Shown here: positions 9,226-44,899 of the stretch, in pieces
How positions within the stretch are numbered: position 1 is the first letter of the stretch
Layout of the letters: every line of letters begins with the position of its first letter
Assembly (NCBI GenBank): GCA_010405405.1
Contig: MU004239.1
Coordinates: 1,628,722-1,680,941, forward strand
Length of the DNA: 52,220 bases
Source of the DNA: Microthyrium microscopicum
Lineage: Eukaryota
Direction: 5' to 3'
Translations under genes and position numbers: made by a program
The notes under the pieces: generated by a model
The model's database searches: none
What the model saw: only the letters and a program-made list of their open reading frames with translations
What the model was told of the DNA's origin: nothing

Positions 9226-10939
9226 CTAAACATTATTCACAAAGTGGAAAAACTCAAACTCGGGCGCCCCACCAGCAACCTTATCCGCACTATTCGGCTT
9301 CTTGATCCGCGGACAAAACTTTTGCGCATCTGCGCGCCATTGTTGGTGCCCCATATACATGCCTGGGAAGACCTTGGGAAAGTCGTTTTTGAAGCTTTCA
9401 ATGTTCTTCTCCCATGGCTTGAATAGCTTGCTATAGTGCATTACGACAAATTGGGAGTGTAGTTCGCCGAGGGCGCCGCGATTCGGATGTGTGCCGGGTT
9501 GGTATGGGTACGGCGGTGGTTGTTCTGGTGCTTTTGGTTTGGCTGGTGCGCTTGGAACGGTGGGAGGAGAGGCGGGTTTTGACGGTGCTGCAGCTGCTTG
9601 AGCAGGTGTTGATGGTGGGGAATCTGCGTGGGCGTTGGAATCAGGATGTGGAGGGTCTGGTTGCTTGGGTTTGGATTCAATGCTTGGATCGGATGCTTTG
9701 GTTTTATCTTCGGCGGCTTTTGCTGCGGCATTCTCTGTGGTTAGATATATTAGTGTCTAGTTGTAGAACCGACGCGATTGGGAGCAACTTACTCTCCTCC
9801 TCGGCTTTGGCTTTTTGCTTCTCCTTTTCAGCCTCTTCAGGTGTGAGGATTTCACCCAAGTCCTCGTCCTTAAGATCATCATCGACTTTGAGTTCTTGCC
9901 TCTTCTTCAATTTATGCGGTGCTGGTACATCAGTAGGCGCCCATTGCTCTTCCTTCTTCTCCTCTTTCGCAGGTTGAGGCGCTTTGTCACCTCCAGAATT
10001 GATCTGAAGTACTTCCCAAAGATCTTCCAATTTGGCTTTGCTGTACTCCTTGACCATTCCCTCTCGATGTAGATCTCCTTCTGGTCGGAACCATTTTGGC
10101 AAATCCCAGTCAACGAAATGGCTATCTTGTGCGCCATATTGTCCGGGTAGAAGCATGGCAGTCGACTCAAAAACCTGATTGATCAGATCAAAGTCAAACT
10201 CCGAGTCTTTTAGCTTTCCCATCGCAGTCTCAACCTCGGTCCAAAGTCGATCACTGAGAGATATGACCATGAGTGAAGTGCTTATGAAATGATCGCCCTT
10301 CCAATATGCTCGTGGTGCCGCAAGGTCGGTTGAAGGCAGATTGAACAAGGAATCGATTGGATGGTAAATGTATTGATCGGCATCGAGGACGATAACGCGG
10401 CGCAAGTCATGCTCGATTTGGTGCATCTTGAACGCATACAGCTTCAGTAAGGAGCCCTCCTTTGGATTACTTCGTGGATGAGGATGTGTAGGTATTGGCG
10501 TCACGCTGACGGTAACGTTCTGCGTCTCCATCGCTTCTACATATTCTTTTGTGACCTTATCTGTAACGAATGCGAATATGCGATGGGGAGTGCGAAAGTG
10601 TCTTAGTCGTTCAATGTTGATCAAGGCTGAACAGGCGTATTCGTCTTTCGTCGCGTAGAAAACGTATGCGAAGGGAGTTTTACGGAAAAGCATTGGACTG
10701 CCCGTGGGCGCTGGTATTGCCGACTCTGTCGTTGTCGCGGGCACTGGTAGATCGGCATAATGAACTCGTTCTGGTTTTTGTTGATCTGGAGCAGCTAAGG
10801 GTTCATGTGGTTGTTGTATAATGGGAAGGTTGTTATGAGCGGGGGCATGTAATCTGCCACTTTGACCGCGAAAGAGCCATGTTAAGCATACTAAGCCAAA
10901 AACAACGGCACCGATAATACGAGGGAATTTGGCCAACAT
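9226..10939 (-). CDS. Glycosyltransferase family 8 (Gnt1-like), type II membrane protein; one intron near 9793-9737
   Basis: N-terminal TM anchor, FAYVFYAT..YACSALIN, LLKLYAF, DxD motif (VLDAD), AAPRAYW. A gtaagt..ctaaccacag intron joins the ORF in frame to an exon ending VMHYSKLFKPW...NNV*. Confidence 0.88.
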
Positions 10940-11655: not shown

Positions 11656-13038
11656 TTACCCAAATACAGTTTCTGATATCCAGTCACTTGTACCGATCTT
11701 CCGATACTCAACTCCCTCCCCAAAGTATCCTGCGTCGTTCCATGACCGCATAGTAGGAACATCATAAGGGCCGTGGCTTTCTCCACCATCTCGTGCATCA
11801 GCCCATCTGTACTCCCACTGAGACGTTTCGTCCAGTTCTTCGTCTTCGTCATCCTGGCCGCCCGGAACAGACCAAGCATCGCCAGTTTCTCGCTGGAATT
11901 GCCGCATCAACAATTCGCGTTCTGTGTCGTAGATCTGATCTTGACCACGAGCAAGAAGCTCATCCGCTGCACCAGTAATGCTCTCCACAGACTCCTTGCG
12001 CTTAGTCTCTGCAGGATCCTCTTCTTTAGCCTCCTTGTCGACGTCCATAGAGTCGGAGTTTTTGTTTCGTTTCTTGTTCTTTTGCCACTTTGGTTTTTGC
12101 TTCGGTCTGTCCTTATTTAATCGAGCCAGTAGCTCTAGAATGGTTTCTCCGGGATGTAAATGTGATATAAGAGTGGAGAGTAAGTCGCTGGTCAGGATTG
12201 CGTCTCGCTCCATGGCTTTCGACCGTCGTTCTTCCTCCCGCTTTTCCTCTGCCTCTTGAGCCTTTTTCATCTCTTTCTTTGACACGCCTTCCAGCCAAGT
12301 ATCGTGCATCGCATTCGGATCTGCCTTGCGGACAAAATTCCCCGTCTCGTCAAAACGACCTTCCTCACCCTCGGCAGTCATATTGAAAGCGTCTATCCGC
12401 GGCGCATGCTTTTTCTTCGCACCCGCACCAAGCTCTAATTCATCCTCATCATCTCCAATCGCATCCCGCCCCTCATCTCCCCCACTTTCGCTATCATCCT
12501 CGTCGTCCGAAATCTCCTTGACATCCTGCGTCTGCCCCTTCTCGTCCTTCAAATCAAACACATTCGCCCCCGCCCGACTTCCAAACACCTGCCCCTCAAT
12601 CTTATCCGCATCCATAAACTTGACCGTCTTTTTCTTCTTCTTCTGGACATCCGGATCATCCTCATCCCCTGCGCCAGCCTCTTCCTCCGAAGCGAACATA
12701 TCCTCATCCGACTCCTCCGCCTTCTGCGCCCGCTTCTTTTGCCGCGCTTTATCCGCCGCTCTTGCGTCAAAGTTATCGTTTTCAGAATCGCTGTCGTAGC
12801 CGTCGAGATTTACAGCGGAGCGCTTGGTGCCAGGGCCTTTGCCGATGGAGTCGAGTTCTAGAACAGCGGCATCGTCAGCGTCAATGTCTTCGTCGGCTTC
12901 GGCGACGAGCTGGGAGGGGTTGCGCGCGTCGAAGCGGAGCTTTTTCGAGGCGGGTTCCAGGTTGTCTGCTTGGTGGGTGCGGAGGAATTCTTCGCCGGCG
13001 CGTTTGGGGCGGGCGGAGGGGCCGGCTCGTCTTGACAT
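11656..13038 (-). CDS. LIN1: LIN1/Snu40/CD2BP2 U5 snRNP-associated GYF-domain protein
   Basis: IDAFNM..E.EEGRFDETGNF motif, L.PGETILE.L.RL, and a C-terminal GYF domain (WEYRW..HGPY..MRSWNDAGYF). Confidence 0.93.
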   Translation of the reverse strand: MSRRAGPSARPKRAGEEFLRTHQADNLEPASKKLRFDARNPSQLVAEADEDIDADDAAVLELDSIGKGPGTKRSAVNLDGYDSDSENDNFDARAADKARQKKRAQKAEESDEDMFASEEEAGAGDEDDPDVQKKKKKTVKFMDADKIEGQVFGSRAGANVFDLKDEKGQTQDVKEISDDEDDSESGGDEGRDAIGDDEDELELGAGAKKKHAPRIDAFNMTAEGEEGRFDETGNFVRKADPNAMHDTWLEGVSKKEMKKAQEAEEKREEERRSKAMERDAILTSDLLSTLISHLHPGETILELLARLNKDRPKQKPKWQKNKKRNKNSDSMDVDKEAKEEDPAETKRKESVESITGAADELLARGQDQIYDTERELLMRQFQRETGDAWSVPGGQDDEDEELDETSQWEYRWADARDGGESHGPYDVPTMRSWNDAGYFGEGVEYRKIGTSDWISETVFG

Positions 13039-13610
13039 CTTGGCGGAATTGTAAGTGTGGAAGATATAGGTTAAGAGCGTGGTGGTGAGGCTGTTCAGTT
13101 CACGTCGTTTGAAGGTCGCAAAATGAATGTGGTCATTATGACTACCAAATGTCGGTTCCGCCTACCATTTAGAGACTAGCGTTGTTGCTTTTCAGCCTTG
13201 TTCAGCCTTGCACGCTTTCCAGCGATCGTCTTGTGATTTATTGTTTGCATTTCTCTACCTATGCTTTCAACGAGATTGAAACATTGAGTTCGGTCGGAAT
13301 TTTTTACTGAGAAGAGCTATTTCGGATTCTAGTCACGCATGCATTTATGGTACACAACTGGTGGTCGTTATAAGGCAAATCAATTTTCCACTGGTGAGTA
13401 TGAGAAGTCATCAACAAGCTGAACCAGTTCCATATAGATTATTGGACCGTCAATATCCAAGCAGCACGTCAATTGATCCCCCGTACCAGCCGCCATGATT
13501 ATTTTGAGTCCTAAGTCACCCAGAAGCCTGCTAGCATTTCTGTCAATTGAGTGCTAGATATGCAAAAGAATTCGGCAGAGGAGGCTCACTCTATACGTTG
13601 TTCAAGGGCA

Positions 13611-14276
13611 TTAGTTTTCCACGAATGTTTTGAATGCCGCCCGGAATTGTTCTTGTGATTTCGCAGCAAATTTGACTCCCTGGACCAATGATTCAAAGGT
13701 CGAGCGTTCCGAACCATGGGCTACGCAGACGCATTGTTCATCCATCACATCATGCCATGTTGGTTCCAGCTGGAACAGCTTGCTGAAAGTTGCTTTCTCT
13801 TTCCTGAAGAACTTGGTCCAAACACCGTGTGTGACGCATAGGAAGTCTGCATCTTTCACAAAAGCCGGACCTATTCTCATAGCTTCGAGACATACATCGG
13901 TGACAAAGATGGGATGCTGACCGTCTCTATCAAGAGAAGATCTGAAGCTTTGATTGTGTAGATCGGAAAGAGACCACACGGCGAGGACTGGAATTGCATC
14001 GGGTAGTTTGCGTTCTTGGATTTGTTGTAGAGCAGTGGCGTCTAAATGACGGATATCATAGAACTGGCCACTTTCTCGCAGCTCAGATTGGATAGTGTAG
14101 CTTTCGAACGTGGGAAATAAATCATGAAGCAGCGAAGTCCACAAGTTATGACGCGCTGTTGCATTATCGTCTTTAGGTGAGCTGTTGAGTACAATAGCAA
14201 GATATGTTTGCATTGCGACATGGTTTGCGTGCAGTATCATTCCCTCCACTTCTTCTTGCGAGTCTGAATCTGACAT
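13611..14276 (-). CDS. Unknown-family paralog 1 (221 aa)
   Basis: Intact ORF sharing motifs EGMILH, RHNLWTSLLHDLFPTFESY, FLCVTHGVWTKFFRK and ERSTFE with the three downstream ORFs. Confidence 0.8.
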   Translation of the reverse strand: MSDSDSQEEVEGMILHANHVAMQTYLAIVLNSSPKDDNATARHNLWTSLLHDLFPTFESYTIQSELRESGQFYDIRHLDATALQQIQERKLPDAIPVLAVWSLSDLHNQSFRSSLDRDGQHPIFVTDVCLEAMRIGPAFVKDADFLCVTHGVWTKFFRKEKATFSKLFQLEPTWHDVMDEQCVCVAHGSERSTFESLVQGVKFAAKSQEQFRAAFKTFVEN

Positions 14277-15381
14277 GGTGTTGCTCTGCTTGCGATGTCT
14301 TCATGTACTTAAACGGTCACTTTTCTATGTCTGGCGGCCAAATGTAAGCGTTAAAGATTGTCATAGGGATACTCTTGTTTACCTTTGAAGTTGCGCGCGA
14401 AGACGCAGAATTTGTGGTTCGTGGACGGCAGTAGGACGGAAGATTATTCGAAGTGCTTAAAGAGTTGATATGTTGGACGGGCAAGACTTGCTACAAGGAA
14501 CATTGTCAGCATAGTACTGGCAGTGAAGCTATCCCAAGCCTTGATTTGAGCCAGCATTCAGTGCTTGAAGACTTACCAACTTTGGTGGGACTTCAATTTC
14601 TGACGCATTCGCATGTCAGGAAACGGAGCTACAATCAAGCGGCTAGTTATTCCCTTCTCTTGGCGTGAAATGACTTCCCCGTCATTGCCATTCATCCCAC
14701 CCGTCCCAGCTCATACAGGGAGATTGAATTCCTGAAAGAAGTAGGCTAGTGGTGGCATTGACAGCACGAACGATATATACGACAGATTGACAGGTCCAGG
14801 CTTGCCCTATTGACGCAGGCTATATTGTAGTTTCTACTTACAGTAGCGGGAGTGATAAGATTTAAATCTTGAGTCCAGAAGAATCAGTGACGCAGCTACC
14901 GTTGAGGATTTAGCTTCGCGTCAATACTGAATTCACCTGTCTGTCTATTTCAATCTTTGAGCACTGAAGTTTGATGAGCCTTCTACCCGATTCTCTTACA
15001 GTCGAGTTTCCCGACCAAGCGCTTCAAAGAACCACAGCCTTGCTCTCTTCTTCAAGCATTCATCCATTGCGCCAACACAATCCTCTAGAAATGATTTGAC
15101 AATAAATATTCGTCCAAAACCAGGTCAGTGTCTTCCGAAACATGCTTCTTGCCGTCTGCCTCATTCAAGGAATAATCAATTTGCTTTCCTGCCAGAGCGA
15201 GGCATGTCAGTAGTGCATTCGACTTGAAAGTAGCAAATCGGCCAAAAGATGGGGCAGAAACGCAATGTAAAGAATCAAGATACTAACGCATCTCAGCTGT
15301 AATCCTGAATTTGCTCTCCATTTCCGGCCCCATTGCTGAACGGCGCACCTCAGACCATATACTGATCTCTACGATAACACT

Positions 15382-15999
15382 ATGGAAGGCGAAGCAACTG
15401 CCACGCTGGACGGCAAAATCCTCAACGAGGGCAATGTGTTATTCAAATCATTGCTCAACTCACCTAGTCCCAGTGAATGTGCGGATGATATGAAGGTGCG
15501 AAGTCTTTGGTATGCAATCATGTCCAGTTTGTGCCAACCATCGAATGAGTACGAACTTGAGGTTCACGAGACACAAGAGGCTTACTGTATTGTCTATGCC
15601 CTCAGCTATCACACGAACAACTCCGGGCCTTCTAAGCAACAGCAAGAACGGCAATTCTTTGAGCTCGTGGTCCTGTCCGCTGACGATCACCCTCGTTTTC
15701 CATATGGCGACAAAAAAAACCCATCTCGCATTCGCTCAAGCGACATGGGCGAAGTCGACGAGTGGCTGGTTGACAATGATCCATCGTGCTTCCTTGGTAT
15801 GGCTACCAGAAATCATATCAAGCTCTTTCGGAGGGTCAGCAACAAGACATACGAAGCACTTACGGAACTTCCTAATCGCTTCTACATGAACAAAGCCCAA
15901 GATCGATACAATTTTGAAATCGCTTTCGACTACATCAAAAACGCCTCACGCACTCACGATATCCTGAAGACAATGGTTATCGAGAAAGGCAGTGACTGA
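15382..15999 (+). CDS. Unknown-family paralog 2 (205 aa)
   Basis: Motifs DGKILN, RSLWYAIMSSLCQPSNEY, FLGMATRNHIKLFRR and KAQDRYNFEIAFDYIK. Probable 5' UTR intron (gtcagt at about 15124 to tactaac..ctcag at about 15296). Confidence 0.82.
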   Translation: MEGEATATLDGKILNEGNVLFKSLLNSPSPSECADDMKVRSLWYAIMSSLCQPSNEYELEVHETQEAYCIVYALSYHTNNSGPSKQQQERQFFELVVLSADDHPRFPYGDKKNPSRIRSSDMGEVDEWLVDNDPSCFLGMATRNHIKLFRRVSNKTYEALTELPNRFYMNKAQDRYNFEIAFDYIKNASRTHDILKTMVIEKGSD

Positions 16000-17024
16000 A
16001 TTGGCACGCTCCGGGGCAATGGCAGTTAGGTAATGGATCTTGTGGTGTGTCGTGGACCGTGGTGCGTGGAAACTGGAAACAAGAAGAAATTATGGGCACA
16101 GAAGCAGATTGAAAACTTGAACAACTCTTTCTAAAAAGTGTACCGAGAGGATGAACTCTAAAAATAGGCAGCTAGATGGCGCAAAAGCGCATTAGGAAAA
16201 GCTTGAAGGCATATCAGTTTCCGCAATAAACTCGGTGCGAGCTTTTCTCCACATGGGTGTCTCGAAATCCATCTTTAGCTTTCCTGTCCATTCTACGACT
16301 TGGCCTGCCATACTCATCACCAAAAGTGTCTCCGTTTGGTCTTGTTTACTAATACTCAGACATGCTCACTATATGCTTCTCAAGGGTTTGAAGCAAGCTA
16401 GGATATGTATACCTCTGGAAACTACCTGGGTACCTCGTATCGTCTTCTGCCAGGCAACGACGCACAGTACGTGGAGTCACGAGAGATACTACAAATGAAG
16501 TATAAACCGTCTGTCCGTAGTACTACATCCGTAACAGAATTGAATAAGGGAAGCATCTCGTCTTATGAACAACCTTCCAAAGATATATAGATCAGTGACT
16601 AAAGTGAATGTTGATATCTTTAGCGCCCTTACTAATTTAAAGGCTCAAGCAGCTCAGGAGCACCATATATCCAGAACTGGGGGTAGTTCGCCTACCTCAC
16701 TGATACAGTTTCCAGTAACTTCCGGCTTGTACCGTTGTACGTGTGTTTGTCTGGTCTTGTCATTCTGATACTAGGCGTTGAACCTTTGAGGTTAACAAAC
16801 ATTGCGAACATACCAACCTTCAAAGTCAGATTCTGAGTCTTACGAATGCCATATCCACCACCAGTCTCACAAACTGTCTCTCACTCACAGCCTCCGCTAT
16901 AGTTCTGGACGATGCAGTAGTCCATACACATATTCTAGGCAGGCTGTGAAGATAGTGGGCTGAACCTGAACAGCTTACTCATAACTATAGGCGACAAGTG
17001 TTATTCAGACACAGTGCAACAGTT

Positions 17025-18125
17025 ATGGAGAAGAAGGATGGGAAGGTCCTGAACACCCGGCAGGAAAATGCTTTCTTGAGCCAGCTTCTCAACGAGGTCT
17101 CAAAACATAAGGGAAGGTCTCCGACCACCCTTGTTCGACTCCTGTTTGGTTACGTGCTAGATAGAGTATTCCCAGCAGTTGAAAACTATAGTCATTGGTA
17201 TGCCAACTTGGAAGATGAAGGTCTTACATCTCTGATCCAAGTCAACATCATGCAACCAAATGATGCTGTCGATTCAACATTAAAATCGGAGGATGACTTC
17301 CAAAACACCGACGAACCAGAGGACTGGCGAATCCTACTTCTCCTCCTTCAGCCAAACCCGTCATTATGGGAACACACAACCGGATTCCATTCAGTGGGCG
17401 ACGGCTTTCCTTGGTGGTTCGAGTTTGACAAAAATGACGAGGTACTACGCAACTTGAAAATATTCCACTTCCTTGGAATTGCCGAGAAAACAAGCATCAG
17501 ATTCTACAAGAAAACCACCATCTCTGGGCCCTTAGTGAAATTTGAAGAGATCTTCGAGAGCCCAGAGAGCCTTGATCTGACAAAAGCTGCCGATCGATAT
17601 ATCTTCGAAGAAGTCATCGAATACATAAAGAAATTCGTGAAAGGCATTCATCTCCACGACCAAAGCAGCTACCATCACATTATAGCCCAACAATTGAATT
17701 CAGAAGTTGACAGACTAATCGGAAACACCGAGGAGATAAGCAATGAAATACAACGTCACTCTGATGAGCTTGTCCATTTGATCCAGGAATCCCAGCGTCT
17801 AAATCAGGGAATCCAGCCGCAAAACCACGAGGGTCCGAATCTTGTGCAACAGCTTCAGGAGGTTTTACATAACGCCCACACGCGGACCTTGGAAGTCTTG
17901 CGTCTCTACGAGACGAAAAATCAGAATGAAAATCAGATACAGGTTTACAATGCCGAGAAGGAGCGTCTACATCAGGAGGGAAAGCGAAAAGGTGAAGAAA
18001 GTGGTCGGCTGCTGGAAGGGATCGATGAATTGTTGGACCAGATCAAAGCCCAGCAGATCCAGGCGCGAAAAGATAGATTAGACGAAAAGAACGGAAGCGA
18101 TCTTGACTCAGAGTCAGATGATTAG
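17025..18125 (+). CDS. Unknown-family paralog 3 with long C-terminal coiled coil (366 aa from ATG 17025)
   Basis: Motifs DGKVLN, RLLFGYVLDRVFPAVENY, FLGIAEKTSIRFYKK and KAADRYIFEEVIEYIK, followed by an E/Q/L-rich helical tail. Confidence 0.85.
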   Translation: MEKKDGKVLNTRQENAFLSQLLNEVSKHKGRSPTTLVRLLFGYVLDRVFPAVENYSHWYANLEDEGLTSLIQVNIMQPNDAVDSTLKSEDDFQNTDEPEDWRILLLLLQPNPSLWEHTTGFHSVGDGFPWWFEFDKNDEVLRNLKIFHFLGIAEKTSIRFYKKTTISGPLVKFEEIFESPESLDLTKAADRYIFEEVIEYIKKFVKGIHLHDQSSYHHIIAQQLNSEVDRLIGNTEEISNEIQRHSDELVHLIQESQRLNQGIQPQNHEGPNLVQQLQEVLHNAHTRTLEVLRLYETKNQNENQIQVYNAEKERLHQEGKRKGEESGRLLEGIDELLDQIKAQQIQARKDRLDEKNGSDLDSESDD

Positions 18126-18708
18126 GGAAATGATAGAGCACATTTATTCTGGAATATAAAGCACTTGTGCGGTGGATTGTTTCGTTGACGAGCAAGACAA
18201 ATTGACAGATACAGAAACCCCAATGTAATAGCGAGAGGAGGGTGCCGGTTGCCGTGACCTTGGGAATATCTGATGAACGCATCAAATCTTTGAGCAATTG
18301 AAATACTAATGCGTGCTTCCCCATCTAGGCAATATACTCCTCCAGTGCCTCATCGCCAAGGTTCACTGAATGACATAGGCAGTATCAGTGCCTACTTTGT
18401 ATAGAGATTGGTGGTCCTCAGTGACTGATCGTTCTCAAAATTATCGTGTATTCACTGGGTTCTCTCATTTTGGAGACTCCATGTCTGATTGTCTGACCAT
18501 CAACGAAACGTCTCGAGACTATAAAATCAAAATTTCTTCGTCCCTCTGAGCACCAACACATCTTCAACACCACAGCATTTCTTTAATAGTCCTTTTGGGC
18601 GAATCGACACAGACACCAGGTAAGTGGTAGCAGCACGAAGTGAGAGTTAGAAAGCTGATCTACATTGTATAGAAACCACATCTCTCCAAGGCCCCACACG
18701 GCAACTTC

Positions 18709-19488
18709 ATGATCATGGATTCCGAGGACGGAAAGATCCTGAACTTGCAAAACCAGGCTCTACGGATTCTTCTTCATGAGCTCCAAACTAGCAGTGAGGG
18801 AGACAAAGACACGGCACGACGGAATTTGTGGATAGCGGTACTGAATAGCCTGTTTCCGACGTCGGAAGGCTATCTCGTCCAGACCACCATTGAAGATAAT
18901 ACTACGATCTCGGTGGCTCTACTTCAGTCCAACGATGGTGCCGAGCCAAGTTTGGGACAAGACATGTGTTGGACGAGCAGCGAGGGTCTGCAGAAACAGC
19001 ATATTCTTGCAATACGAATCTTCGCTCATTCGGCCTCCAAGAATTACACCATCGATGACCCTGATTATCCACCTGGTATCGTTATTGACTGCGACCGTAC
19101 CGCACCAAACGCCTTGAAATATTGCAGCTTTCTCGGCGTAGCAGAAGAAGCTCAAATTCGTTTCTACAAGAAGAAAGAGGGATTTTATACTTCTGGAAGA
19201 TTCCAGGAGATATTTGACGAGTGGAAATTCTTTACTCTTGCAAAGGCTAGAGATAGACAGCACATCGAGGACATCATGAGCTATTTGAAGAATGAGACAC
19301 TGGGATCAATTGCAAGCGAAAAAAGCACCGGGCATCGTGCAAGCGCCCATGTTTTATCCGAAAAACTCCAAGAGAAGACTCGGAAAGCTGAAGCTGAGGC
19401 CGAAAACAGTAGGCGATTACACTTGGAAGCTTCTACCACAATTACTACAGTCAGGACCCGAATGCTGACGCAAGTTGGCTACATCTGA
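18709..19488 (+). CDS. Unknown-family paralog 4 with short helical tail (259 aa)
   Basis: Motifs DGKILN, RRNLWIAVLNSLFPTSEGY, FLGVAEEAQIRFYKK and KARDRQHIEDIMSYLK. TATAAAA at 18520 and a 5' UTR intron (gtaagt at about 18620 to tag at about 18672). Confidence 0.85.
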   Translation: MIMDSEDGKILNLQNQALRILLHELQTSSEGDKDTARRNLWIAVLNSLFPTSEGYLVQTTIEDNTTISVALLQSNDGAEPSLGQDMCWTSSEGLQKQHILAIRIFAHSASKNYTIDDPDYPPGIVIDCDRTAPNALKYCSFLGVAEEAQIRFYKKKEGFYTSGRFQEIFDEWKFFTLAKARDRQHIEDIMSYLKNETLGSIASEKSTGHRASAHVLSEKLQEKTRKAEAEAENSRRLHLEASTTITTVRTRMLTQVGYI

Positions 19489-19860: not shown

Positions 19861-21706
19861 TCATCCTTCGTGATCATTAAAGTTGTGCAAGCTGATATCC
19901 TGCACGCGAGAAGGACTCGGCGGCTGCACATCATCTTGATGAGCGGATCCATTGATGACTGTTGCTGTGATAATGTTGCCATTGACCTTGGAGCCCAATT
20001 TCTCGACCTCGTCAGCTTTTGAACTGCGTCTATTGGCCGGCACACCATTGAGAGCAATTTCCACGGCAGTGTCATCAGCGACACCTTGAACGACTGCTTG
20101 ACGAGCCATGATGAGCTCCTTCTCCTTTTTGCGGGTACCGCGGAGCATGTCGAGGTGCTCAAAGTAGTTGTCCTGTACGGGCGTGATGTATTGGCCGCAG
20201 AAGACGCCAACTTCAAATTTCTGGTTTGGGCGTGGTGAGAGTTCTGCGCAGGCTTGTTTAAGATCCTCCAGGTTTTGGTAGACCACAGCGTCGGCACCGA
20301 TGACCTCGGCGATTTCTTTCTGAGAACGTGAGTGCGCGAGTAGCTCAGATCTAGATGCGAGATCAATTCCATAGATGTGAGGATGACTAGCGAAGGTTAG
20401 CCGGATCCTGGAACAGAACGGCATCAACTTACGTGATCTCAGGGGCACAGCTCGTAAATATGACCTTTTTCGCTCCCGCTTCTCTTGCCATCAGCACTAT
20501 TTCGCGACTCGTAGTACCCCGAACAATGCTATCATCGACTAGAAGCACCGTCTTGCCTGCAAACTTCGGTTTCATCGGGTTGAGCTTTGCACGAACACCT
20601 TTTTGTCGTTGCTTTTGATTTGGCATGATGAAAGTTCTGAAGATGTACCGATTCTTGACAAAGCCTTGACAATAAGGCTTTTTCAAGCACTCGGCGACGA
20701 CTTGAGCACTGGACATGCTTGTTTCCGGGATTGGCATAACAACGTCCACTTCATCAAGCAGGTCTTTGCCGAGCTCTTTGATGATCTTCTCTGCAAGCTT
20801 GTAGCCCATGTTTCGTCGGCATTCGTCAACATCAATTCCATCAATGATTGTGTCCGGTCTAGCAAAGTAGACATATTCGAAGATGTCAGGAGCATATGCC
20901 AGCTGCTCTTGAATTTGATGAAAGACTGGTGCTTTTCCCTTTTCGATAATGACTCCTTCACCTGGAAGAATGTCTTTGAAGTCGTTGTAACCGCATTGAA
21001 CCAGAGCGACAGATTCAGATGCAATCATGTAGTCCTTACCAATGCCAGAATCAGATGGTTTCTCTCCAATAACCATGGGTCGAATTCCAAAGGCATCTCT
21101 GAATCCAATGAGACCAAAACCTACCCAAGTTAGCCGGAATATGAATGACGCTGGAGATTACTAACCTGCAATCATGCCTGTGCATGCCCAACCTCCAACG
21201 CATCTTTTGTAGGTTCTCTCCAGAGCCTTGAAACAATCATGAGAATTGATTCGAGCTTTTCCAGTCTCGTTCAACTCGCTAGCAAAAACGTTAAGCATGA
21301 GCTCACTATCACTATCGGTGTTGATATGGCGATGTGCTTCTTGATCAAGGAATTCCTTGAGCTCTGGTGCGTTGATTAAGTTGCCATTATGAGCAAAGCA
21401 AATTCCATAGGGACTGTTGACATAGAAAGGTTGAGCTTCAGAGGTCGAGCTGCTACCAGCTGTAGGGTATCTCAAATGTCCAAGTCCCATGAATCCGGGC
21501 AAGTCAGCGATGCGAGTGCCATCGTTGAAGACTTTGGAAGCCATTCCGTTGCCTTTACACTGATAGATACGTCCACCAGGTGCAGCGCAAGTGGCGATTC
21601 CGCATGCATCTTGTCCTCGATGCTGGAGAAGATAGAGGGCATCGTGAATTTCGATAGCAGCAGATGATTTTGGATCCGCATGGATCACAGCAATGATACC
21701 ACACAT
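19861..21706 (-). CDS. ADE4: Amidophosphoribosyltransferase, 3 exons (21706-21166, 21120-20433, 20386-19861)
   Basis: N-terminal MCGI nucleophile, [41 protein letters not shown]-binding [20 protein letters not shown]. Confidence 0.98.
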
Positions 21707-34478: not shown

Positions 34479-37400
34479 CTATCGAGCGTTGGAAACGTTC
34501 CAAGCGTTTTCAACATGGATCATGTGATCTAAATTTCTCACAAAATCCTCAGAAGTACCATATTGCAGGATTGAACATGCCAAGCGAAGACTTTTATCGC
34601 AGTCTTTGAAACTCATCTTGGCGATCAAATACCCCATGCCTGTCCGGTCCGTTAGTTCCGGTTGGTTGAGTCTGTCCATGACCGTATCGTGGATCAGTTT
34701 TCGAGAACCAAATATCGACTTCAATGCTTGAACCGCTGTGCCCTCAACTGCGACATTGGCACGATCACCGTAAATGCTTATCATTGCTGACACAATCCAC
34801 TGCTGGGATATATGCATGAATTTGGTCCAAGTCGGCTGTTCGCTTTCTGAATCCTCGTCGTCAGTTAGGGGATCAATCCACCCAGAAAGGATCCAGTTCG
34901 GAAACATGTTGCTAATTGCGGTTGCGCTGAAAACCTCAGAGGCTAGCTCATCCACTAACGAGGAACTATCATCGAGGTGATTCATAAAGGCGTCTTTGAA
35001 TCCCTTTTCTGCAGAATCCTTTAGATCATCAGAAATGGCCTCAAACGTTTTTGCGGCGATCAAGTTGTCAAGATCTCCTAGAAATCGTCCGGGCCAAGTT
35101 AATTCCCAAAGCGGGCCAAAGAGAGTGTCTGTTCCAGCTTCAGTTGAGAGCGGTTGAGAAAGGCGAAAGGCGACAGCGGCTCGATCTCCGAAGCCTTTCC
35201 GGATGGCGTGCTCGCAAGTGTCCCTAAAATTGTCGTTCTGCTCATTCAATAGCTCAACTATCGGGTAGGAGTCCAGAAACTGTTCCGTGGCAGTCTTCAC
35301 AGTCCGGCGTAGAACTGCAAAGAAAGCATTCCTAGAATCACCCGAATTTGACATGGACTGTAGGTAGTCTCCAAAGCCTTGGCCCTCCCCTTCTGCTGCA
35401 TGATTTGATAGCGAAGGAAGTTGAGTGGCAAGACATTGAGCGTCTGCACCGGATTGGAGTTTGATAAATGTTTCCGCTAGGCAATATCGGATAATCTCTG
35501 TCACATCCTTCTCCCATCTTTCCGACCATGTACGAATGAACGCACTAGACTCGTCCAAGGCTGCAGCTTGCAGTTGCACGAAAGCTGCCTGAGCAAGATG
35601 TTCCATAAGCAAGGACTCTGTTCGCGTGGTGATGTCTGCCCTGATCTTTTCGATCGTATCCGTCTGACCAACATAATGTAACTCGTAGGGAGCATTGAGT
35701 CTAAATGCAATTGGAACGCACCCGTGAGAGTCTAAAGTATCGAGGAAAAAGTGTTTGAGCATGTAGTCATTTTTCTTGGCGTCGGACGCAACAGCATACT
35801 CGACTTGCTCGCCGAGCTCTCGGGCCCAGTCTTGAAACACTGAGTTCCAATCAACATATTGAAGATTATCTTTGTATGCAGTTGCGATCTCAGACTCCAA
35901 TTCTCTCGAAAACTGACGTAGGCTGCTGCGCTGCGTTGATTCTGCCGGCAGGGAGTCGATTAATTTTGACAACTTGGTTTGCGCATCAAGCAGCAGTGGG
36001 AAAATAGCCTCCGAGACTGGAACGTGACTATCATCAAGCATCCTAGGGTTTTTGATGAGCGGCTCTGAGACTTCTTTGAGCAACACTTCGAACTTCGAGG
36101 CTCCAACTCGACCCTTAGTCACATGTTCATACATACCAAAGCCCAATAGCCACATCTTCGAGCCAGCATATGCAAAAGCCTTACCAAGGTTCATGCCATT
36201 AAGCCATCTTTTGACTAGAGAGTGCATCTCGATGTAAGGCACATCATCAGGCCCAACTTCCACCGAGCTCACTGTAATCATGTTCACTGCGGCCAGGGCT
36301 TGGATTGCGAGCTCAAAAGACCCATTCTCCATGAAACGAAGCTGAGCGATGACAGAATGGCCTGACTTTGTAACAGACGCATTACTCGCTGTACTCGTAG
36401 CGCTGAATTTGCGATACAGGCGAACAAATTCTGCGAGAGTTGACGGGTTCTCGGCCGATGCTACGAAATGAGCCATGGACGTTGCATCTTTATTGATCCC
36501 AGTGCCTTGTAGGATATCCTGAAATGCAAATTGGAAGGCTTTCCATACCGATGAGGAGTAGTCGGAGAACAACCGATCTTTCTGAAGTAAACGGTCTTTG
36601 ACCTCATCAGACCAAGCAAGATAGGCTTGGCCATCAAAGCTCCGGATGCCGTTTCCTTTCTGTAAAGCAGCACCTACGACGGCAATTGCTAATGGAAGAC
36701 CCGCAAGCTCCTTCACGATGTGTCTCCTTGCGTCTGTTTCTTGGTCAGTCTGCTCCTCTTGGGCAGCTTGACCTGATGTAAGTGAAGCTGAGTTTGTGTT
36801 CAGGTACATATCCAGGAGGTCTTGACCAATTTGTTCGTCCAGCGGCTTCATCTGCCAAATATACGGAGTATTGAGGACGGAAGCCAAATCCTTGTTCCTT
36901 GTCGTAATGAGGATCTTGCTGGCGCTTAGGTCGGTAAAGGTGTATTGCTGAATATTGATGAGAGGATCGTCTAGGCCATCGAAAACAACCAACCATTGGT
37001 CAGGAAAGCGTTTGGACAGGTGATGAGCAATGAGATGCACAGGCTCTGAATATTGCTGGTCGTTTCCGCACATCTGCCTAGCATACTGCTCAAATGCTTG
37101 TTTCATAGCTGCCTCGGAATTACTGGGTATCCAAAGAACGGCCATAGCTTTCTGAGCATGGTATGCATATGATCTGGCCATAGTTGACTTCCTGCCGCCT
37201 AAGGTGAGCGGGATAAGAAAAATCTATGTAGAAAAGCTTCACCTACCCTATACCTGGAAGGCCATGTAAGATGACACGAACATGCCCAGTGCAGCTAAGC
37301 GCCTCGGCAAGGAAAGACTGAACATCAGCGCAAATGAGAAGCCGTTCTTGCAGGAATATCGACTTGCTTTGAAGCATTGGAAGCCCATCGGAAGGAATAC

Positions 37401-38136
37401 GATCTGCTAATCCTTTCGCACGTCTGTTGATTGCGTCCTTAAGTCTAATTCGTGCGTGCTCCTTGCCCTCGCCATATATTGGCTCCATGAAGACGCCGAA
37501 GATGCCCAGAAGGGAGTAAGCTTGGTCTTCTTCCCTTCTGGTTGTCCGTTTCTCTGCCCATGCCATTCGTTGTTCGACGCTAATCTTTTCGAGAGGGTCG
37601 CCCCGAAGCGCTGCAAGCGCGACTCCTGTGATGTTGGAAAGCTGTTGTTCTAGTGATTTCTTATCACCAAGTCGCTTGCGGTCTAAAGAGAAGAACTCGA
37701 CCGAATCCGGAGCTATCAGTTCCTGAAGCGTCCATCCACGAGTAAACCATCGGCTCTCTTGCAATGCCTTGTTGATATCATTCTGACTGTTCATCGAAAC
37801 ATCTGTCAGGTACACATAGCATTTCGCAGAATTGCGATACCAACGGAACATCGAATTAATAGCTTCGGAAAGTTCAGCAAGATTAGACTTGTCAATGCAG
37901 CAGGTGTCGATCCAAAAGTACTCCAGGTCATCTTCTCTCGCGCGTTCTTCACAGAACTGAATCTTGTCATTTCCAAGCTTTTCTGTAACATTGCCATGTT
38001 TCATATCATGAAAGGTGACTTCCTCGCTGTCCCGGCGCCATGTGTGAGAAAGTATACCGTAACGAGGGATCGGATCGTCGCCAACCAAGTCCTCAGTAAG
38101 GGTAAATTTACCAGAGACGAGGTGCAGGAGACGCAT
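34479..38136 (-). CDS. Fungal NLR-like protein: HET domain, NB-ARC (STAND) NTPase and an unassigned helical C-terminus; exons 38136-37247 and 37191-34479, 1200 aa
   Basis: HET motifs YGILSHTW, FWIDTCCIDK, EAINSMFRWY, SRWFTRGWTLQELIAP. A 55-nt intron splits Walker A, which splices to LHGLPGIGKST. Walker B WLVVFDGLDD, ILITTRN, GLPLAI, and MHD-like MHSLVK. Confidence 0.92.
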
Positions 38137-41100
38137 AGCTAGGACCAGGGCGGGACGCTAGCAAGTACGGAGTTTGAGATCGGGATGGTTAGGCTAGGTG
38201 GTTGTCTCCATATGTAATAATTCCTTATAGGGGATGGTCAGCAAGCTGAATTCCTACAGAATTCTTCTGCTCTTAGATTAGCTAAAAGCAGGTTAGGGGG
38301 CGTTAGCGTGTAGTAGGCTAATATCAAACTAAGAAAATGCGCCTTATACAAATTACCCCCGCAGTGCTTTTTTAACTATAACCCTACTATATTTTAATTA
38401 GATCTTAGCTAAAAATAGCCTAAAATAAATACTACTAAAGCTATAGATATTAAGATAGCTACTATTAGTATTTTAGCGTTATTATTAAACTAGCTTTAAG
38501 AAGAAAAGGAATAGGAATAAGATTAGATAATACTAGCGTATAATTACTAACTTTTTATAGAATATTCTTTCTATAACTAGAGTTTTAAAGATAGGTTAGA
38601 TTAGATATATAAGATTAAATATTAGTATATACTATAAGCTTAGGTTAAAGTAATATCTATAGTATTAATTAGTATATAATAGATTTAAGAAGTATAAAAT
38701 ATAATAGCTAGTAAAGATAATAGATCTTAAATTTATATCTCTACTTAATTAAATAATACTACTTAAAAAATTACTATTTCTATTATACGTTATATACTAT
38801 AGATTAGCTAAAATCTATATCTATAATAATATTTATTAGTACTTTAGAAGAAGTAAAACTTATATAAAGTATTACTTTAATACTATATTAATATAGCTTT
38901 ATAATAAGTATACTAATACTTTATTATAATTCTATTCTATTTTTATATTATTAAAATATTTTTAATACTTATAAGCTATAAATTATACTAGTAGTATACC
39001 TAAGTTTTAAAGCTAAATTAATAGAATGTATATTAATATTTTAAGGCTAGAAAGTAACTAAATTTAGTAGTAGTTCTATAGTAGTTATTAGGAAAACTAC
39101 TATATAAAAATATAATATATTACTATACCTAATAGAATGTTGCTAGCTATTAATTATAACTACTTTAGATCCTTAAACGACTTCCTAATATTAATTAATT
39201 TAGTTCTTAAAGATAGAATTTAATAGATATTTAGTAATGATCTAAAACTACTTCTTTATAGTAACGCTACTTATCTAATAAACAATATAATTATAGTACT
39301 ATACTAGAGTACTAAATTACTACTTTAGTAGTATAATTTTAACTTTTAATAGGCATTTCTTTAAGTTAGTATTAAGTAGATATTTACTATTATAAAGAAT
39401 ACGTAGTAAGGAGGATTATTAGACTATAGGTATAATATACAAATAGGTTTAATGCCTATAGTATATTATTAAATAGTAATAATATTATTATAAAACTATA
39501 GAATAGCTTAATAGTAGAAGAATCTCGTAGAGAGCTAATATACTATTAAACTACTAATAATTAATTAGTATTTAAATCTAGGTAGTATATTTAATAGTTA
39601 GATACTATTAGAATTATAAGAATAGGATAATTTAAATAATATAAAGTAGTTATAGTATTATTTATAAAAGTAGAAGTTATAAAGTAAAGTTAGATAATCT
39701 TACTAAAGAAAAGAAAGTTAATAGAGTAGAGTTAGCTAATTATTTAACCTTTCTATATACTTTTAAAGCTTTTAGTATCTATTATAAGATTTATATAAAA
39801 ACTATATTCTATCTTTACTACTAAATTATATAAAGAATACTAAAATAATTTTACTAACGCTTATTATCTTAAAGACTCCTTTAATAACTCTTTTATTTCT
39901 ATTATCTTTAAGTATAATCTATTTACTTCTTTTTTTAGATTTATAACTTTATCTCCTTTACTACTACTACTACTACTACTTATATAATTATTAGTACTAC
40001 TACTACCTTATTTATTTCTATCTCTAAGAGCTTTAATTATTACTTTTAATATTTTTATAATTACTTCTAAAGTATTAAAAATCTTCTTACTCTTTTTATA
40101 CTTTACGTGTAGACTTAAAGTAGGATTTCCTTATCTTAAAGTTAAAGTTAAAGAACTACTCTATAGAGAAGTAGAAATATAAGTATTTAGAGTAAGAACT
40201 ATAGAATTTAACTACTAGCTACCCTTTTTAAGATTAATTACTAATAGTTCCTTAATAGGAATATTAAATAATATCTTAATATTATTATTACTATTTAATA
40301 TAATATTAACTAATAGCATATTCTTTTCTAAATACTATTTAGCTATATTATTACGTATTTTAAAGCTATCTTTCTTCTTTATTTTTTTAGTATCTATTAT
40401 TACTTTTTTTCTCTTTATAGTAACTTTATAAGCTATTTAAATAGCCTTAAAACGGTCTAGTGCTTATTAGAATTTATTAATAAGAATATTATACCCTAAT
40501 TAAAGACGCTTTACTTTAGTAATTCTTTAAGGAATTATCTTTTCTATTATAGCTTTATAGGTACTTCTAAAGGGCTCTTTTACTATATCGAGATTCCTCT
40601 TATTCTTAAAGAGGTTAGAGATACCCTACTACTACTATAACTTCTATCTACTAAGGGCGTCTCTACTAAGGCTACTATAGGTATTAATCTTCTTTAAATA
40701 ATAGAATACTACTATTACTAATAGTAGTTATCCCTAATTTAGATTCTACTTCCTACTCTTAATTAAAGAGAATACTACTACTAAAGAAAAAGTAATAAGT
40801 ACTATAAATTTAACTTTTAGCGTAGTAGGAATAATATTCTAGCTCTATAAGTAGGAATATAGCTATAAATATAGCTCTTACTAGCTTTAGGTAAGTAATA
40901 TTAAAGTAAACTAATCCCTATATTATAGTATAGTACTATTTTAGTATATAGGAGTATACTAATCCTAGTTCTAAGTATTTTATAAAGTATATTAAATAAT
41001 ATTAGAATTAGAGTTATAATCCTATATCTATAACCCTTTAGTAAACTTACTATTATAGTTTTAGCTAATATAAGCCCTAAAGTAAGAAGTTTAGGTAAGA

Positions 41101-41579
41101 GTTATCTTATTAATATTATAAAGTATAGAATATAACTCTTTAAACTATAATTCTTACTTAGAATTTAGTAGAGGGCGTAGAATTAAGTCCTATAGAGAAG
41201 GATTAATATTACTATTATTAAAGTTAAGTATATAGCATATATTTAACTCTATACTAATATTATAAATAGATTTATATAGTATTTTACTACTTATAGTAAT
41301 ATAAGTAATTTATATAAGTTTACTAAATTTAATAGCTTTATAGAGTAACTAAGTATTATTAAGATCTATACTAAACTAAGCCTCTTTTAATACTACTAAA
41401 CTATATTAGAAAGAAGAATTTAAGGTTATAACGCTAATGCTAAGGTCTAGCACTATAAGTAGAAATTCTTCTTTTAGCTATTTTAGGTTAGTAAATACTA
41501 CTAAAACGAGAAGAATTCTATAGGAATTCTACTACTAACTATTCTTATAGTACTAAGTATTAAGAAAGATCTTAGTATT

Positions 41580-41860
41580 ATAAAATTACGCGCTAGACCT
41601 AGAAGGATTAGTGTGTCTAAAGTTCTACTAAGTAAGCTTACTTCCTTTATAGATCTATAGTAGTTCTAAATCTTTTTCTTCTTTTCCTATAATAAGCTAT
41701 AGAACTTAGAGTAAGTAAATAATTAGATTATATTCTAGAATCTATAAATAAGAAAAAAAGAGAAGAAGATCTAGAAGAGCTATAGATCTATAAGAATTAT
41801 AAGTCTACTTAATAAATTCTTAGATATACTAATTCTTTTAAGTTTAGTACGTAATTTTAT
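41580..41860. repeat. Diverged inverted repeat, arms 41580-41690 and 41748-41860
   Basis: The reverse complement of the left arm (..CTATAGATCTATAA..TAGACACACTAATCCTTCTAGGTCTAGCGCGTAATTTTAT) aligns with the right arm (..CTATAGATCTATAA..TAGATATACTAATTCTTTTAAGTTTAGTACGTAATTTTAT). Confidence 0.75.
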
Positions 41861-41990
41861 AATAAAATCTCTCTTATAATACTACTATAAAGTTTATAAA
41901 GAAAAATTATTATATAATTCTTCTTTCTAGTATAGCTTTCTAGACTATAAATTACTAATTATAACTACTTTTCTAATTTTTCTATTCTAA

Positions 41991-42040
41991 TTTAGTCTAG
42001 TCTAGTCTAGTCTAGTTTAGTTTAGTCTAGTCTAGTTTAA
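41991..42040. repeat. 5-bp microsatellite (T(C/T)TAG)n
   Basis: tttagtctagtctagtctagtctagtttagtttagtctagtctagtttaa. Confidence 0.85.
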
Positions 42041-44899
42041 TAAACTTTTAGTAATAAATAATATTTTAATTTTTTTATAGTATAATATTAATCTTACTAG
42101 TTATTTAGAGTATTTTAACTTTTAACTTATTAAAGTAACTATTAAGAAGTATTAATAAACTTTAAAATATTTTTAGAATACTTTAGTTTTTAAGTTCTAG
42201 TAGTCTAGTAGTTAGTAATTTTATTAATATAAGAAAATTAATAGTATAATTATTTACTTCTTTTAATTAGTAAAAATACTATTAAAGTTATAATTAATAT
42301 TATTACTAGTAAGTTCTAGTATTATTAGTATCTAAATAGAATATAAATTTAGCTTATTAGAATACTAAGTATAAAACTTAGTAATAAGCTTTAGTATATT
42401 CTTAGTAGCTATTTAATTATACTATTTAGTTTTATTATAACTAGTATACTTAATTTTATATTATAGCTTTTTATATTAATTAGTAAAGTAGTTATTAATA
42501 ATAATATTAATAAACTATTTATTATTATTTATAGTTTTTTTAATAACTACTAGTAGTAAATTAGTATACTTAAGTAGCTTAATATTATTTATAGTATAGT
42601 AAAAAACTTAAGTATAGAAAATATTATATATTTTTATAAAAAAGAGAAGATTAAACTTATAAATAATAGTATTAATTTTTTTAAGTTTTAAGTTTTTATA
42701 TTATTTTCTAAAACTTATAAATATTCTTATAGTTACTAATAAGAAAGCTATTAACATAAATATAATATAGAAAAGCTATACTAAAATATATAATTATTTA
42801 AAAAAGTAATTAATTTAAATATAGACTTAGTAAGTAGAATATACTAACTACTACTACTATATAGTTCTAGACTTACTACTAAATAACTAAGTCTACTTAG
42901 ATATATAAAACTATTCTACTTTATATTTTTTAAAGACTTTAAATAATAAAAAGAATATAAAAATACTTATTATAATTATATTTATATATAGAGTTATAAA
43001 TCTATTATATTTTATTTAATTTAGTATTTAGTAAATTTAATTTAGTCTAGTATTTAGTATAATATTTTTTTAACTAAATCTAGTATTACTAGTATTTAGT
43101 TTTTAGTAAAAACTAGTTTAATTTAGTATTAGTATATATATTAGCAAAAGTTTAGCTCTACTAGCAGTCTTAGTAGGTACCTACTAGGACGTTAGTCTGT
43201 TAGTCTATATCTAATATATTAGGTTAACTTGCCACCTAAGGACTAGCAGGACTAGTAGGACGGAAGCTAAATTTTAGTAGGAGTTAATAGGGATCTTTAG
43301 CTTAGCAAGGAACATTAAAACTAATAATAAGATTAAGATTCTCTAAGTCTAATCTTTCTTTATAGATTACTAGCTATCTAGCCTTACAGCTATTACCTTA
43401 TCGCCTATACGTATAAATCATAGGTTTTATAGGTATTTTAAAAGAACTAGCTAAATTCGTTAAGGTTTTATAGAGTTAGTAAGGATAAAAGATATAAAAC
43501 GCTACTTAAACTTTAGATTATTAAGCTATACTTTTTATATCTAGGCTGCAAACGGCTATAGGGCTTTAATAATCTATAACCTATATATAATAATACTTAT
43601 CTTAATGAGCTCTATCATAGTGCTAGTCTTATTACTATAGCTAGCCTAATTAGGAAGTTATTATAAAAGTCATTTTTAGTAAAATGATAATCGCTGCATC
43701 TCAACGGCTATTAGGGCTAGGGTAATATAAATTACATAATAATATAGCCCTAATCTAGGGCTATATAATGGTATATAAATTACATGCTAGGCCCTACTAG
43801 GAGGTAAAATAATAATAGAAACGTTTTTAATCTAATAATAGTAAACTTATAGAACCTGCTAGGACCTGCTAGGACTTATAGAATTCCTTAGGACTATTAG
43901 GATATCTCCTCTTCCTAAGCTGAGCTTAACTTTTGCCGATGTAAATTATATAAATCTAGTAAATACTAGTATTTAATTAAGTATACTAGTTAAACTAAAT
44001 AATATTTATTATAATTTAAATATATTTATTTTAAGAAAATTTTTATATTATATAATAGCTCTAAACTAGGAAATTTTAGATCTAGTCTTAGTTTTTCTTA
44101 AATACTACTAGTTATAGCGTTATAATTAGTTTTCTAAAATAATTTAATAAAATTAAAATCTTAGATTTAATTTTATATAATACTAACTATAGTATAATAA
44201 GAAAAAGTTTAAGGTATATTATACTAGACTAAGTATATTCTTTAAAGCTATAGATTAGCTTTAGCTTATAACTTAATATTTATAATAGTATTTAATACTT
44301 TAAATAAAGAAAATATATTTACTTAGATTTTATATTAAATTCTAAGTAATATATAGAATATATATATACTACTATAGTAGATATTAGCTTAAGATTACTA
44401 TAGACCTAATTACTAGCATAAATATTAGTTATAACTATTATATATAATAGAAATATTTATTTATACTAGTAATATTAAGAACTAGAATACTTCTAGTTTA
44501 AGATAACTACTAATAGAATACGTCTACGTAGAATAAAGCGTTATTAGTTAGATTAACTAATAATAACCTATTATAAATATAGATAGCTTAATAGAGTCCT
44601 TATAGCTCTAAGTAATAAAGAAGAGAAATTATAAGAGTCTAAGTAACTTTCTAGTAATTACTCTTATTCCTATTTTTATATATCTACTTAAATTATAATA
44701 ATTATAGTCTTTACCTACTTAGAATAACTTATTTCTAATATAGTAATTACTTCTTAATCCTTAAATACTTAAAGAAATTATTTTTATCTTTTATCTAATT
44801 AGAAACTATATTTAATAGTAAATATTTAGACCTTAGCGCCTAGATAAGACTTAGGTAGCTATAACTATTAGGCTAAGGGCTACTAGTACCTATTATATC

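Follow-up and report, generated by a model that had tools for sequence, protein, structure and literature searches.

Four diverged paralogs with a predicted, apparently inactive PD-(D/E)xK restriction-endonuclease fold between LIN1 and ADE4 in Microthyrium microscopicum

A 52,220-nucleotide stretch of contig MU004239.1 (positions 1,628,722 to 1,680,941 of assembly GCA_010405405.1) of the fungus Microthyrium microscopicum—hereinafter the window, to which all coordinates refer—carries four strongly diverged paralogs of an unnamed protein family between genes resembling LIN1 and ADE4. The domain of about 190 residues that they share very probably has the PD-(D/E)xK restriction-endonuclease fold. 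Given that fold, all four are likely to have lost its canonical metal and lysine site, such that no nucleic-acid cutting of the usual kind would be expected of them. The family would represent a known fold in a new, inactive form, with a functional role that is predicted: the explanation that we favor, tentatively when taken as a whole chain, is that the four are pseudo-nucleases that bind proteins instead of acting as catalysts, most probably serving as decoys or antidotes against active nucleases that have the same fold and are encoded elsewhere.

Paralogs 1 (P0001, 221 amino acids, 13611..14276, minus strand) and 2 (P0002, 205 amino acids, 15382..15999, plus strand) stand head-to-head and consist of the core domain only. 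Paralog 3 (P0003, 366 amino acids, 17025..18125, plus strand) adds to the core a probable coiled-coil tail of ~150 residues, and paralog 4 (P0004, 259 amino acids, 18709..19488, plus strand) a tail of ~55 residues, its core having been modeled as residues 1-200. The region holds four open reading frames (ORFs) of at least 200 amino acids, as against none in 300/300 shuffles, and no extra or broken copy of the family was found within the window. To judge from their sequences, the four are true paralogs. The same four motifs run collinearly through their alignment, which has 11 invariant columns, at pairwise identities of 15-30% (25-30% to paralog 4). In Smith-Waterman comparisons, four of the six pairs scored above all 1000 shuffles, while the score of paralogs 1 and 2 was reached by 13/1000 and that of paralogs 1 and 3 by 172/1000. 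In a leave-one-out profile test, each paralog scored 36-133 bits, as against at most 11.7 bits for the best of 500 shuffles, with a small bias in that the profiles were derived from the joint alignment. A first-pass annotation of the window had reported the collinear motifs despite low overall similarity and had proposed alignment and profile-building as a check; the motifs are indeed there, and the check returned significant profile similarity among all four.

No nucleotide similarity between the copies is left as judged by blastn, and 20/99 four-fold degenerate sites under identical residues are the same, i.e., the level of chance. Since the protein motifs and the open frames have outlasted this synonymous saturation, purifying selection is indicated on a set that arose by old local duplication, which is the history that the annotation had put forward. 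It had further pointed to frames staying open in a genome with active repeat-induced point mutation (RIP); this too holds: RIP is active in this genome now or was so formerly, with GC at 0.19 and TpA/ApT at 1.69 in the mutated right end of the window (39,000-52,220), as against TpA/ApT of 0.46-0.64 and no RIP signature in the four ORFs, which resemble their housekeeping neighbors. The AT-rich block with the strong RIP signature extends over 38500-52220 (GC 0.08-0.29) and lies no more than about 60 kb from the end of the contig.

The fold is assigned because the same superfamily recurs over two models and methods. An AlphaFold model of paralog 4 built from the four-sequence alignment (predicted local distance difference test, pLDDT, 69.9; predicted template modeling score, pTM, 0.72) has, as per DSSP, a helix at residues 30-48, strands at 55-62, 65-72 and 98-105, a short helix at 134-138, strands at 141-146 and 149-155 and a final helix—a helix-strand-strand-strand-helix-strand topology. 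Its comparison by VIA-align with 48,161 chains placed first the nuclease domain of DrdV (Z 8.8, up to 8.9; root-mean-square deviation 3.7; 135 residues aligned), next HsdR of EcoR124I (7.1; 4.1; 128) and BpuSI (7.1; 4.4; 146) and further down a putative restriction endonuclease (Z 6.4) and NucC (Z 6.2), with the same ranking on a second comparison. With its own model of paralog 1, the ESM Atlas has HSDR_N, Uma2 and DUF7924 clusters among the 10 matches listed, at template modeling (TM) scores of 0.41-0.61. The resemblance to PD-(D/E)xK proteins, earlier suggested from motifs, is thereby supported at the level of predicted structure. A single-sequence model of paralog 1 reached a pLDDT of 39.7, global-mode hhalign gave 2.5 for the real comparison and 9.0 for the best of 60 shuffles, and a viral fold library yielded no match at E <= 0.001.

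The canonical active site of this superfamily comprises an Asp starting the second strand and a (D/E)xK on the third, to which the first helix often contributes a Glu (PMC3424549, here and below in the part available). The corresponding positions in the paralogs are putative, having been mapped by hand on the predicted strands of the paralog 4 model and not by residue-level superposition. In the first core helix (residues 30-48; 18796..18852, plus strand), the motif-I position would be D in paralogs 4 and 2, A in paralog 1 and T in paralog 3. In the second core strand (residues 65-72; 18901..18924, plus strand), the position of the motif-II Asp would be S, Q, V and D in paralogs 4, 3, 2 and 1, respectively, such that the Asp is found in 1/4; paralog 1 apparently retains the beta-1 Glu along with this residue (D74). 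On the third core strand (residues 98-105; 19000..19023, plus strand), the place of (D/E)xK appears to be taken by RIF in paralog 4, LLQ or LLL in paralog 3, VVL in paralog 2 and WSL in paralog 1. Given the model's strand assignment, (D/E)xK thus closes the third strand in 0/4 paralogs, the listed [DE]xK triplets all lying elsewhere, and the earlier remark that no E-x-K is visible where expected agrees with this hand mapping. There is no conserved lysine near strand 3, as the alignment's one invariant Lys falls in the C-terminal helix, and the alignment has no QxxxY in the helix before strand 4. As a reference, E-x-x-V, (P)D and E-x-K are all seen in archaeal HSDR_N_2 domains and in this genome's intact DUF7924 gene. 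The core domains of the paralogs are acidic (isoelectric point, pI, 4.9-5.3); in the fold, the second core helix as a rule carries positive charge, which serves the binding of substrate (PMC3424549).

The reading as protein-binding decoys arises from a scaffold that is retained and a site that is apparently lost, from an acidic surface and variable loops, and from the use of this fold in fungal killing. The last point draws on the Spok proteins, whose PD-(D/E)xK lysine is required for killing, from which a use of the fold in fungal conflict follows (PMC6660238, here and below in the part available). Under this proposal, the fold would be held by the conserved scaffold and the C-terminal helix, partners would differ from paralog to paralog owing to the hypervariable loops, and paralog 3 may oligomerize through its coiled-coil tail. 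That the paralogs act via protein-protein binding, given the fold and the lost site, is about as likely as not. The likeliest partner would be an active nuclease that has this fold and is encoded elsewhere, be it a selfish or a foreign toxin, which the dead copy might sequester or poison. We count in support the presence in the genome of a fungal nuclease of the DUF7924 family that looks intact, a candidate active enzyme, and of a copy with 12 stops. It is doubtful whether the cluster is specifically an orphan antidote array, in which each dead restriction-endonuclease-fold copy would neutralize a different active nuclease, such as a meiotic driver or the toxin of a mobile element or competitor. 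A complex prediction for paralogs 1 and 2, for which alignments were not used, scored 0.00 and counts neither way.

Several observations pull in the other direction. At the level of the fold, Foldseek gives no match at E <= 0.001 (best, NucC at E 0.051), the Z of 8.8 barely exceeds the 7-8 that can be attained by models without a clear match, and pLDDT drops below 50 at residues 77-93 and 111-122. Profile comparison by hhalign returns a probability of 0.3% with 15 HSDR_N_2 domains and 0.4% with the DUF7924 protein. As regards the lost site, a low-confidence hhalign extension puts motif III at residues 124-130 of paralog 4 (IVIDCDR), in a different register, and catalytic residues can migrate in the PD-(D/E)xK superfamily (PMC3424549). 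Moreover, Spok resistance resides in a kinase domain and not in a dead nuclease copy (PMC6660238).

It is possible, if on the unlikely side, that the cluster is an ordinary lineage-specific birth-and-death array, whose dead scaffolds perform a non-conflict cellular job as adaptor, structural subunit or regulator, in the manner of Sen15 or RPB5. The superfamily is known to include inactive members that are structural (PMC3424549). The isolation of the host, seen in its LIN1 (58-63%), can by itself explain the absent sequence relatives, and no mobile-element or kinase partner was found in the cluster. The rate of divergence tells against such an array, in that the paralogs are mutually 15-30% identical, whereas LIN1 shares 52-63% with other fungi; housekeeping adaptors usually evolve more slowly.

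We regard it as improbable that at least one paralog is an active nuclease or toxin with a rearranged or new site, which the others regulate or neutralize as parts of a linked toxin-antidote set. The fold has documented cases of migrated residues and of new sites (PMC3424549), paralog 1 apparently keeps two acidic positions, and the segment behind strand 3 has, in all four paralogs, a Pro followed 3-6 residues later by an Asp. Likewise, paralogs 1 and 2 have divergent, low-depth transcripts with upstream ORFs in their leaders, and near-identical CRN pairs have opposite effects in oomycetes (PMC5289972, here and below in the part available). These points are countered by the lack of a conserved lysine near strand 3, with the only invariant Lys in the C-terminal helix, and by the acidic cores.

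Even less probably, the paralogs would be non-cutting DNA- or RNA-binding proteins that retain the substrate surface of a nuclease and act as regulators or genome-defense sensors: the fold is known to bind DNA without cleavage (PMC3424549) and the basic patch (R/K)(F/L)(Y/F)(R/K)(K/R) is conserved across the paralogs, but the cores are net acidic (pI 4.9-5.3) and QxxxY is missing before strand 4. Least probable of all is an allorecognition locus of the het type, at which strains would carry balanced and strongly diverged alleles. The hypervariable middles, the cytoplasmic nature of the proteins and a HET and NB-ARC gene 15 kb away would suit such a locus, but the observed divergence is that of paralogs and not alleles, the four proteins have no HET, NOD-like receptor (NLR), gasdermin or patatin domain in a Pfam scan, and no difference appears in runs X5, X6 and X3 over the covered parts, a weak point as these may be one strain (X3 maybe the source of this DNA and X5 maybe the same strain). 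The original suggestion of an allorecognition or toxin-antidote locus is accordingly left unsupported, there being no canonical toxin-like member and no variant in 3/3 runs, with the caveat on strains just given; the placing of an array amid housekeeping genes is not diagnostic in its own right.

By the features examined, the four paralogs are not members of HSDR_N, DUF7924, Spok or Crinkler. Their predicted fold and order of elements are the same as in DrdV (7lo5), HsdR of EcoR124I (2w00), BpuSI (3s1s) and HSDR_N_2 (PF13588), with Z 7.1-8.9 over 128-146 residues, and the x-x-V-R start of the helix and the G-h-x-x...F-Y hairpin look like those of the HSDR_N_2 reference alignment. They differ from restriction-endonuclease domains in being 7-12% identical to them, in having apparently no PD-(D/E)xK, no QxxxY and no methyltransferase or motor domain and in being eukaryotic and stand-alone; there is no Pfam match to HSDR_N_2 or HSDR_N (PF13588, PF04313), the hhalign probability is that 0.3%, and QxxxY is wanting. 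DUF7924 (PF25545) is a structural neighbor of paralog 1 (TM 0.58) with 3 matches in this genome; in contrast to the paralogs, its intact copy keeps E-x-x-V, PD and E-x-K, it shows no profile similarity to the four, its genes lie on other contigs, and the paralogs do not match its Pfam model. Those matches (L063, L064, L065 on contigs C2, C5, C14) comprise one intact gene, one with 7 TAG and 5 TAA stops (12 in all) and one fragment with 3 TAG stops.

A parallel may also be drawn with the Spok meiotic drivers of Podospora, which form a paralogous family with a coiled coil and a fungal PD-(D/E)xK domain most like HsdR; they combine in one protein a nuclease active site, a cluster of cysteines and a resistance-conferring kinase, none of which is found in the four paralogs (205-366 amino acids, no kinase match) (PMC6660238). 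Similarly, the Crinkler (CR) effectors with restriction-endonuclease domains are eukaryotic, fast-evolving families of this fold linked to conflict (PMC5289972), whereas the paralogs have no N-terminal header, NTPase or kinase, their core beginning within 10 residues of the N-terminus. There is also a likeness to unnamed ascomycete clusters of ~190-200 amino acids in the ESM Atlas, which score 0.95-0.96 to paralog 4 and share 182-190/256 features with it among the matches listed, these including clusters of 209, 74 and 67 members, 189-202 amino acids long and mostly from Ascomycota. A 195-amino-acid cluster has a TM of 0.58 over 161 residues to the paralog 1 model. The comparison with these clusters is by features and structure, not by sequences, and HMMER did not detect them at E <= 0.001; for paralog 4, 29/30 feature hits were clusters without a common Pfam family.

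Sequence relatives outside the cluster were not found in any of the following searches. A word-indexed search returned only self matches (1/212 candidates with paralog 4, 3/1719 with the alignment). The profile gave 6 matches against 1.84 billion representatives, i.e., the 4 themselves and 2 repeat proteins that were rejected on inspection. There were 0 matches among PDB sequences, 0/17 candidates in viral contigs and 0/192 in prokaryote genomes; 2 matches in plasmids, at E 7-8, were dismissed as chance. Pfam, NCBIfam, PADLOC and PHROGs have nothing over the core except for one 16-residue NCBIfam match (E 0.043), and each of the four proteins is a one-member cluster. The host's own genome has no further loci of the family: the motif pattern matched 24 times as against 30 for its control, and the profile scored at the known locus only. 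PF13588 likewise had no match there, nor had PF20516, whose control also matched nowhere. A literature search, with most subscription journals outside its reach, gave no description of the family.

The best relatives of LIN1 are 58-63% identical (52-63% over other fungi), the top named ones belonging to what we take, from their names, to be Dothideomycetes; to go by this gene, the host is an isolated dothideomycete-like fungus. Its isolation and fast evolution can together explain the missing sequence relatives. Six metagenome LIN1 loci (50-60% identity) have neither a family member nor ADE4, and 2 alone among them have long upstream DNA. These two, apparently of one organism and too distant for dating the insertion, have there a gene that is presumably UFD1-like.

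Evidence of transcription comes from run X5, which is guessed to be RNA from its spliced ADE4 introns, none of the listed runs being recorded as RNA. Introns with GT..AG ends are spliced in X5 in the untranslated regions (UTRs) of paralog 1 (5'-UTR, 14331..14382, 52 nt, and 14491..14576, 86 nt; 3'-UTR, 13528..13589, 62 nt; all minus strand) and of paralog 2 (5'-UTR, 15124..15296, 173 nt, plus strand), the spliced contigs having a depth of 4-7. The two genes are transcribed divergently, with their nearest 5' pieces ending ~350 bases apart as estimated from the joint table. Upstream ORFs of 21, 23 and 43 codons occupy the leader of paralog 1 (region 14277-14600), the last overlapping the main start out of frame, and ones of 41 and 2 codons that of paralog 2 (region 14900-15381). 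Thus, of the initial description as four intact single-exon ORFs, one on the minus strand head-to-head with three on the plus, intactness, place and orientation stand, and "single-exon" holds for the coding sequences only. Paralog 4 has a predicted 5'-UTR intron (18620..18672, plus strand) with a GTAAGT donor, a branch site and an AG, which is unspliced in the X5 contig across it. The X5 coverage gap at ~16,440-17,790 takes in most of paralog 3. A single unspliced X5 contig (17,794-20,059, depth 215; strand not given by the data) spans the tail of paralog 3, paralog 4 and the 3' end of ADE4. It was rejected as expression of paralog 4, since it includes that 3' end, its neighboring contig has a depth of 1430 and ~340 such bases suffice for the mean; it could be antisense read-through from ADE4. 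The public protein record of paralog 4 is a 174-amino-acid form starting at Met86, which lacks the first 85 residues and, with them, the initial helices of the domain and two of its strands. The tail of paralog 3 has a heptad a/d hydrophobicity of 0.57 in the best of 7 registers and weak matches to coiled-coil families.

The flanking genes are as first named. On the left lies a LIN1/CD2BP2-like GYF protein (11656..13038, minus strand), recognized by its domain match and relatives, and on the right a multi-exon ADE4-like amidophosphoribosyltransferase (19861..21706, minus strand), convergent with paralog 4 and named for its Pfam phosphoribosyltransferase match and purF-like relatives. The four proteins have no signal peptide, as had been said, and no membrane segment, as judged by hydropathy. 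Elsewhere in the window, a HET-domain ORF and an NB-ARC ORF stand in tandem 61 bases apart (34479-38136, minus strand), probably as a single NLR-type gene split by an intron; Pfam has no match to its long C-terminal part, and it adjoins the RIP-mutated AT-rich block. A glycosyltransferase-like ORF (9704-10939, minus strand) has a DxD-type motif judged by eye and no Pfam match; its intron at 9735-9792 is spliced in X5, such that the end of the ORF is not the true C-terminus.

Among fungal PD-(D/E)xK proteins are spore killers and effectors, yet Pfam has no name for the ascomycete family of small, stand-alone proteins in the ESM Atlas. If the paralogs should prove to be generic adaptors, they would be one more unnamed lineage-specific array, now with its fold assigned and its gene model corrected. 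If instead they were an orphan antidote array, resistance would be attained via a pseudo-enzyme decoy and not by the kinase route of Spok. A selected set of four apparently dead copies, of which paralogs 1 and 2 are transcribed, would offer a compact test of whether fungi pit pseudo-nuclease decoys against nuclease toxins.

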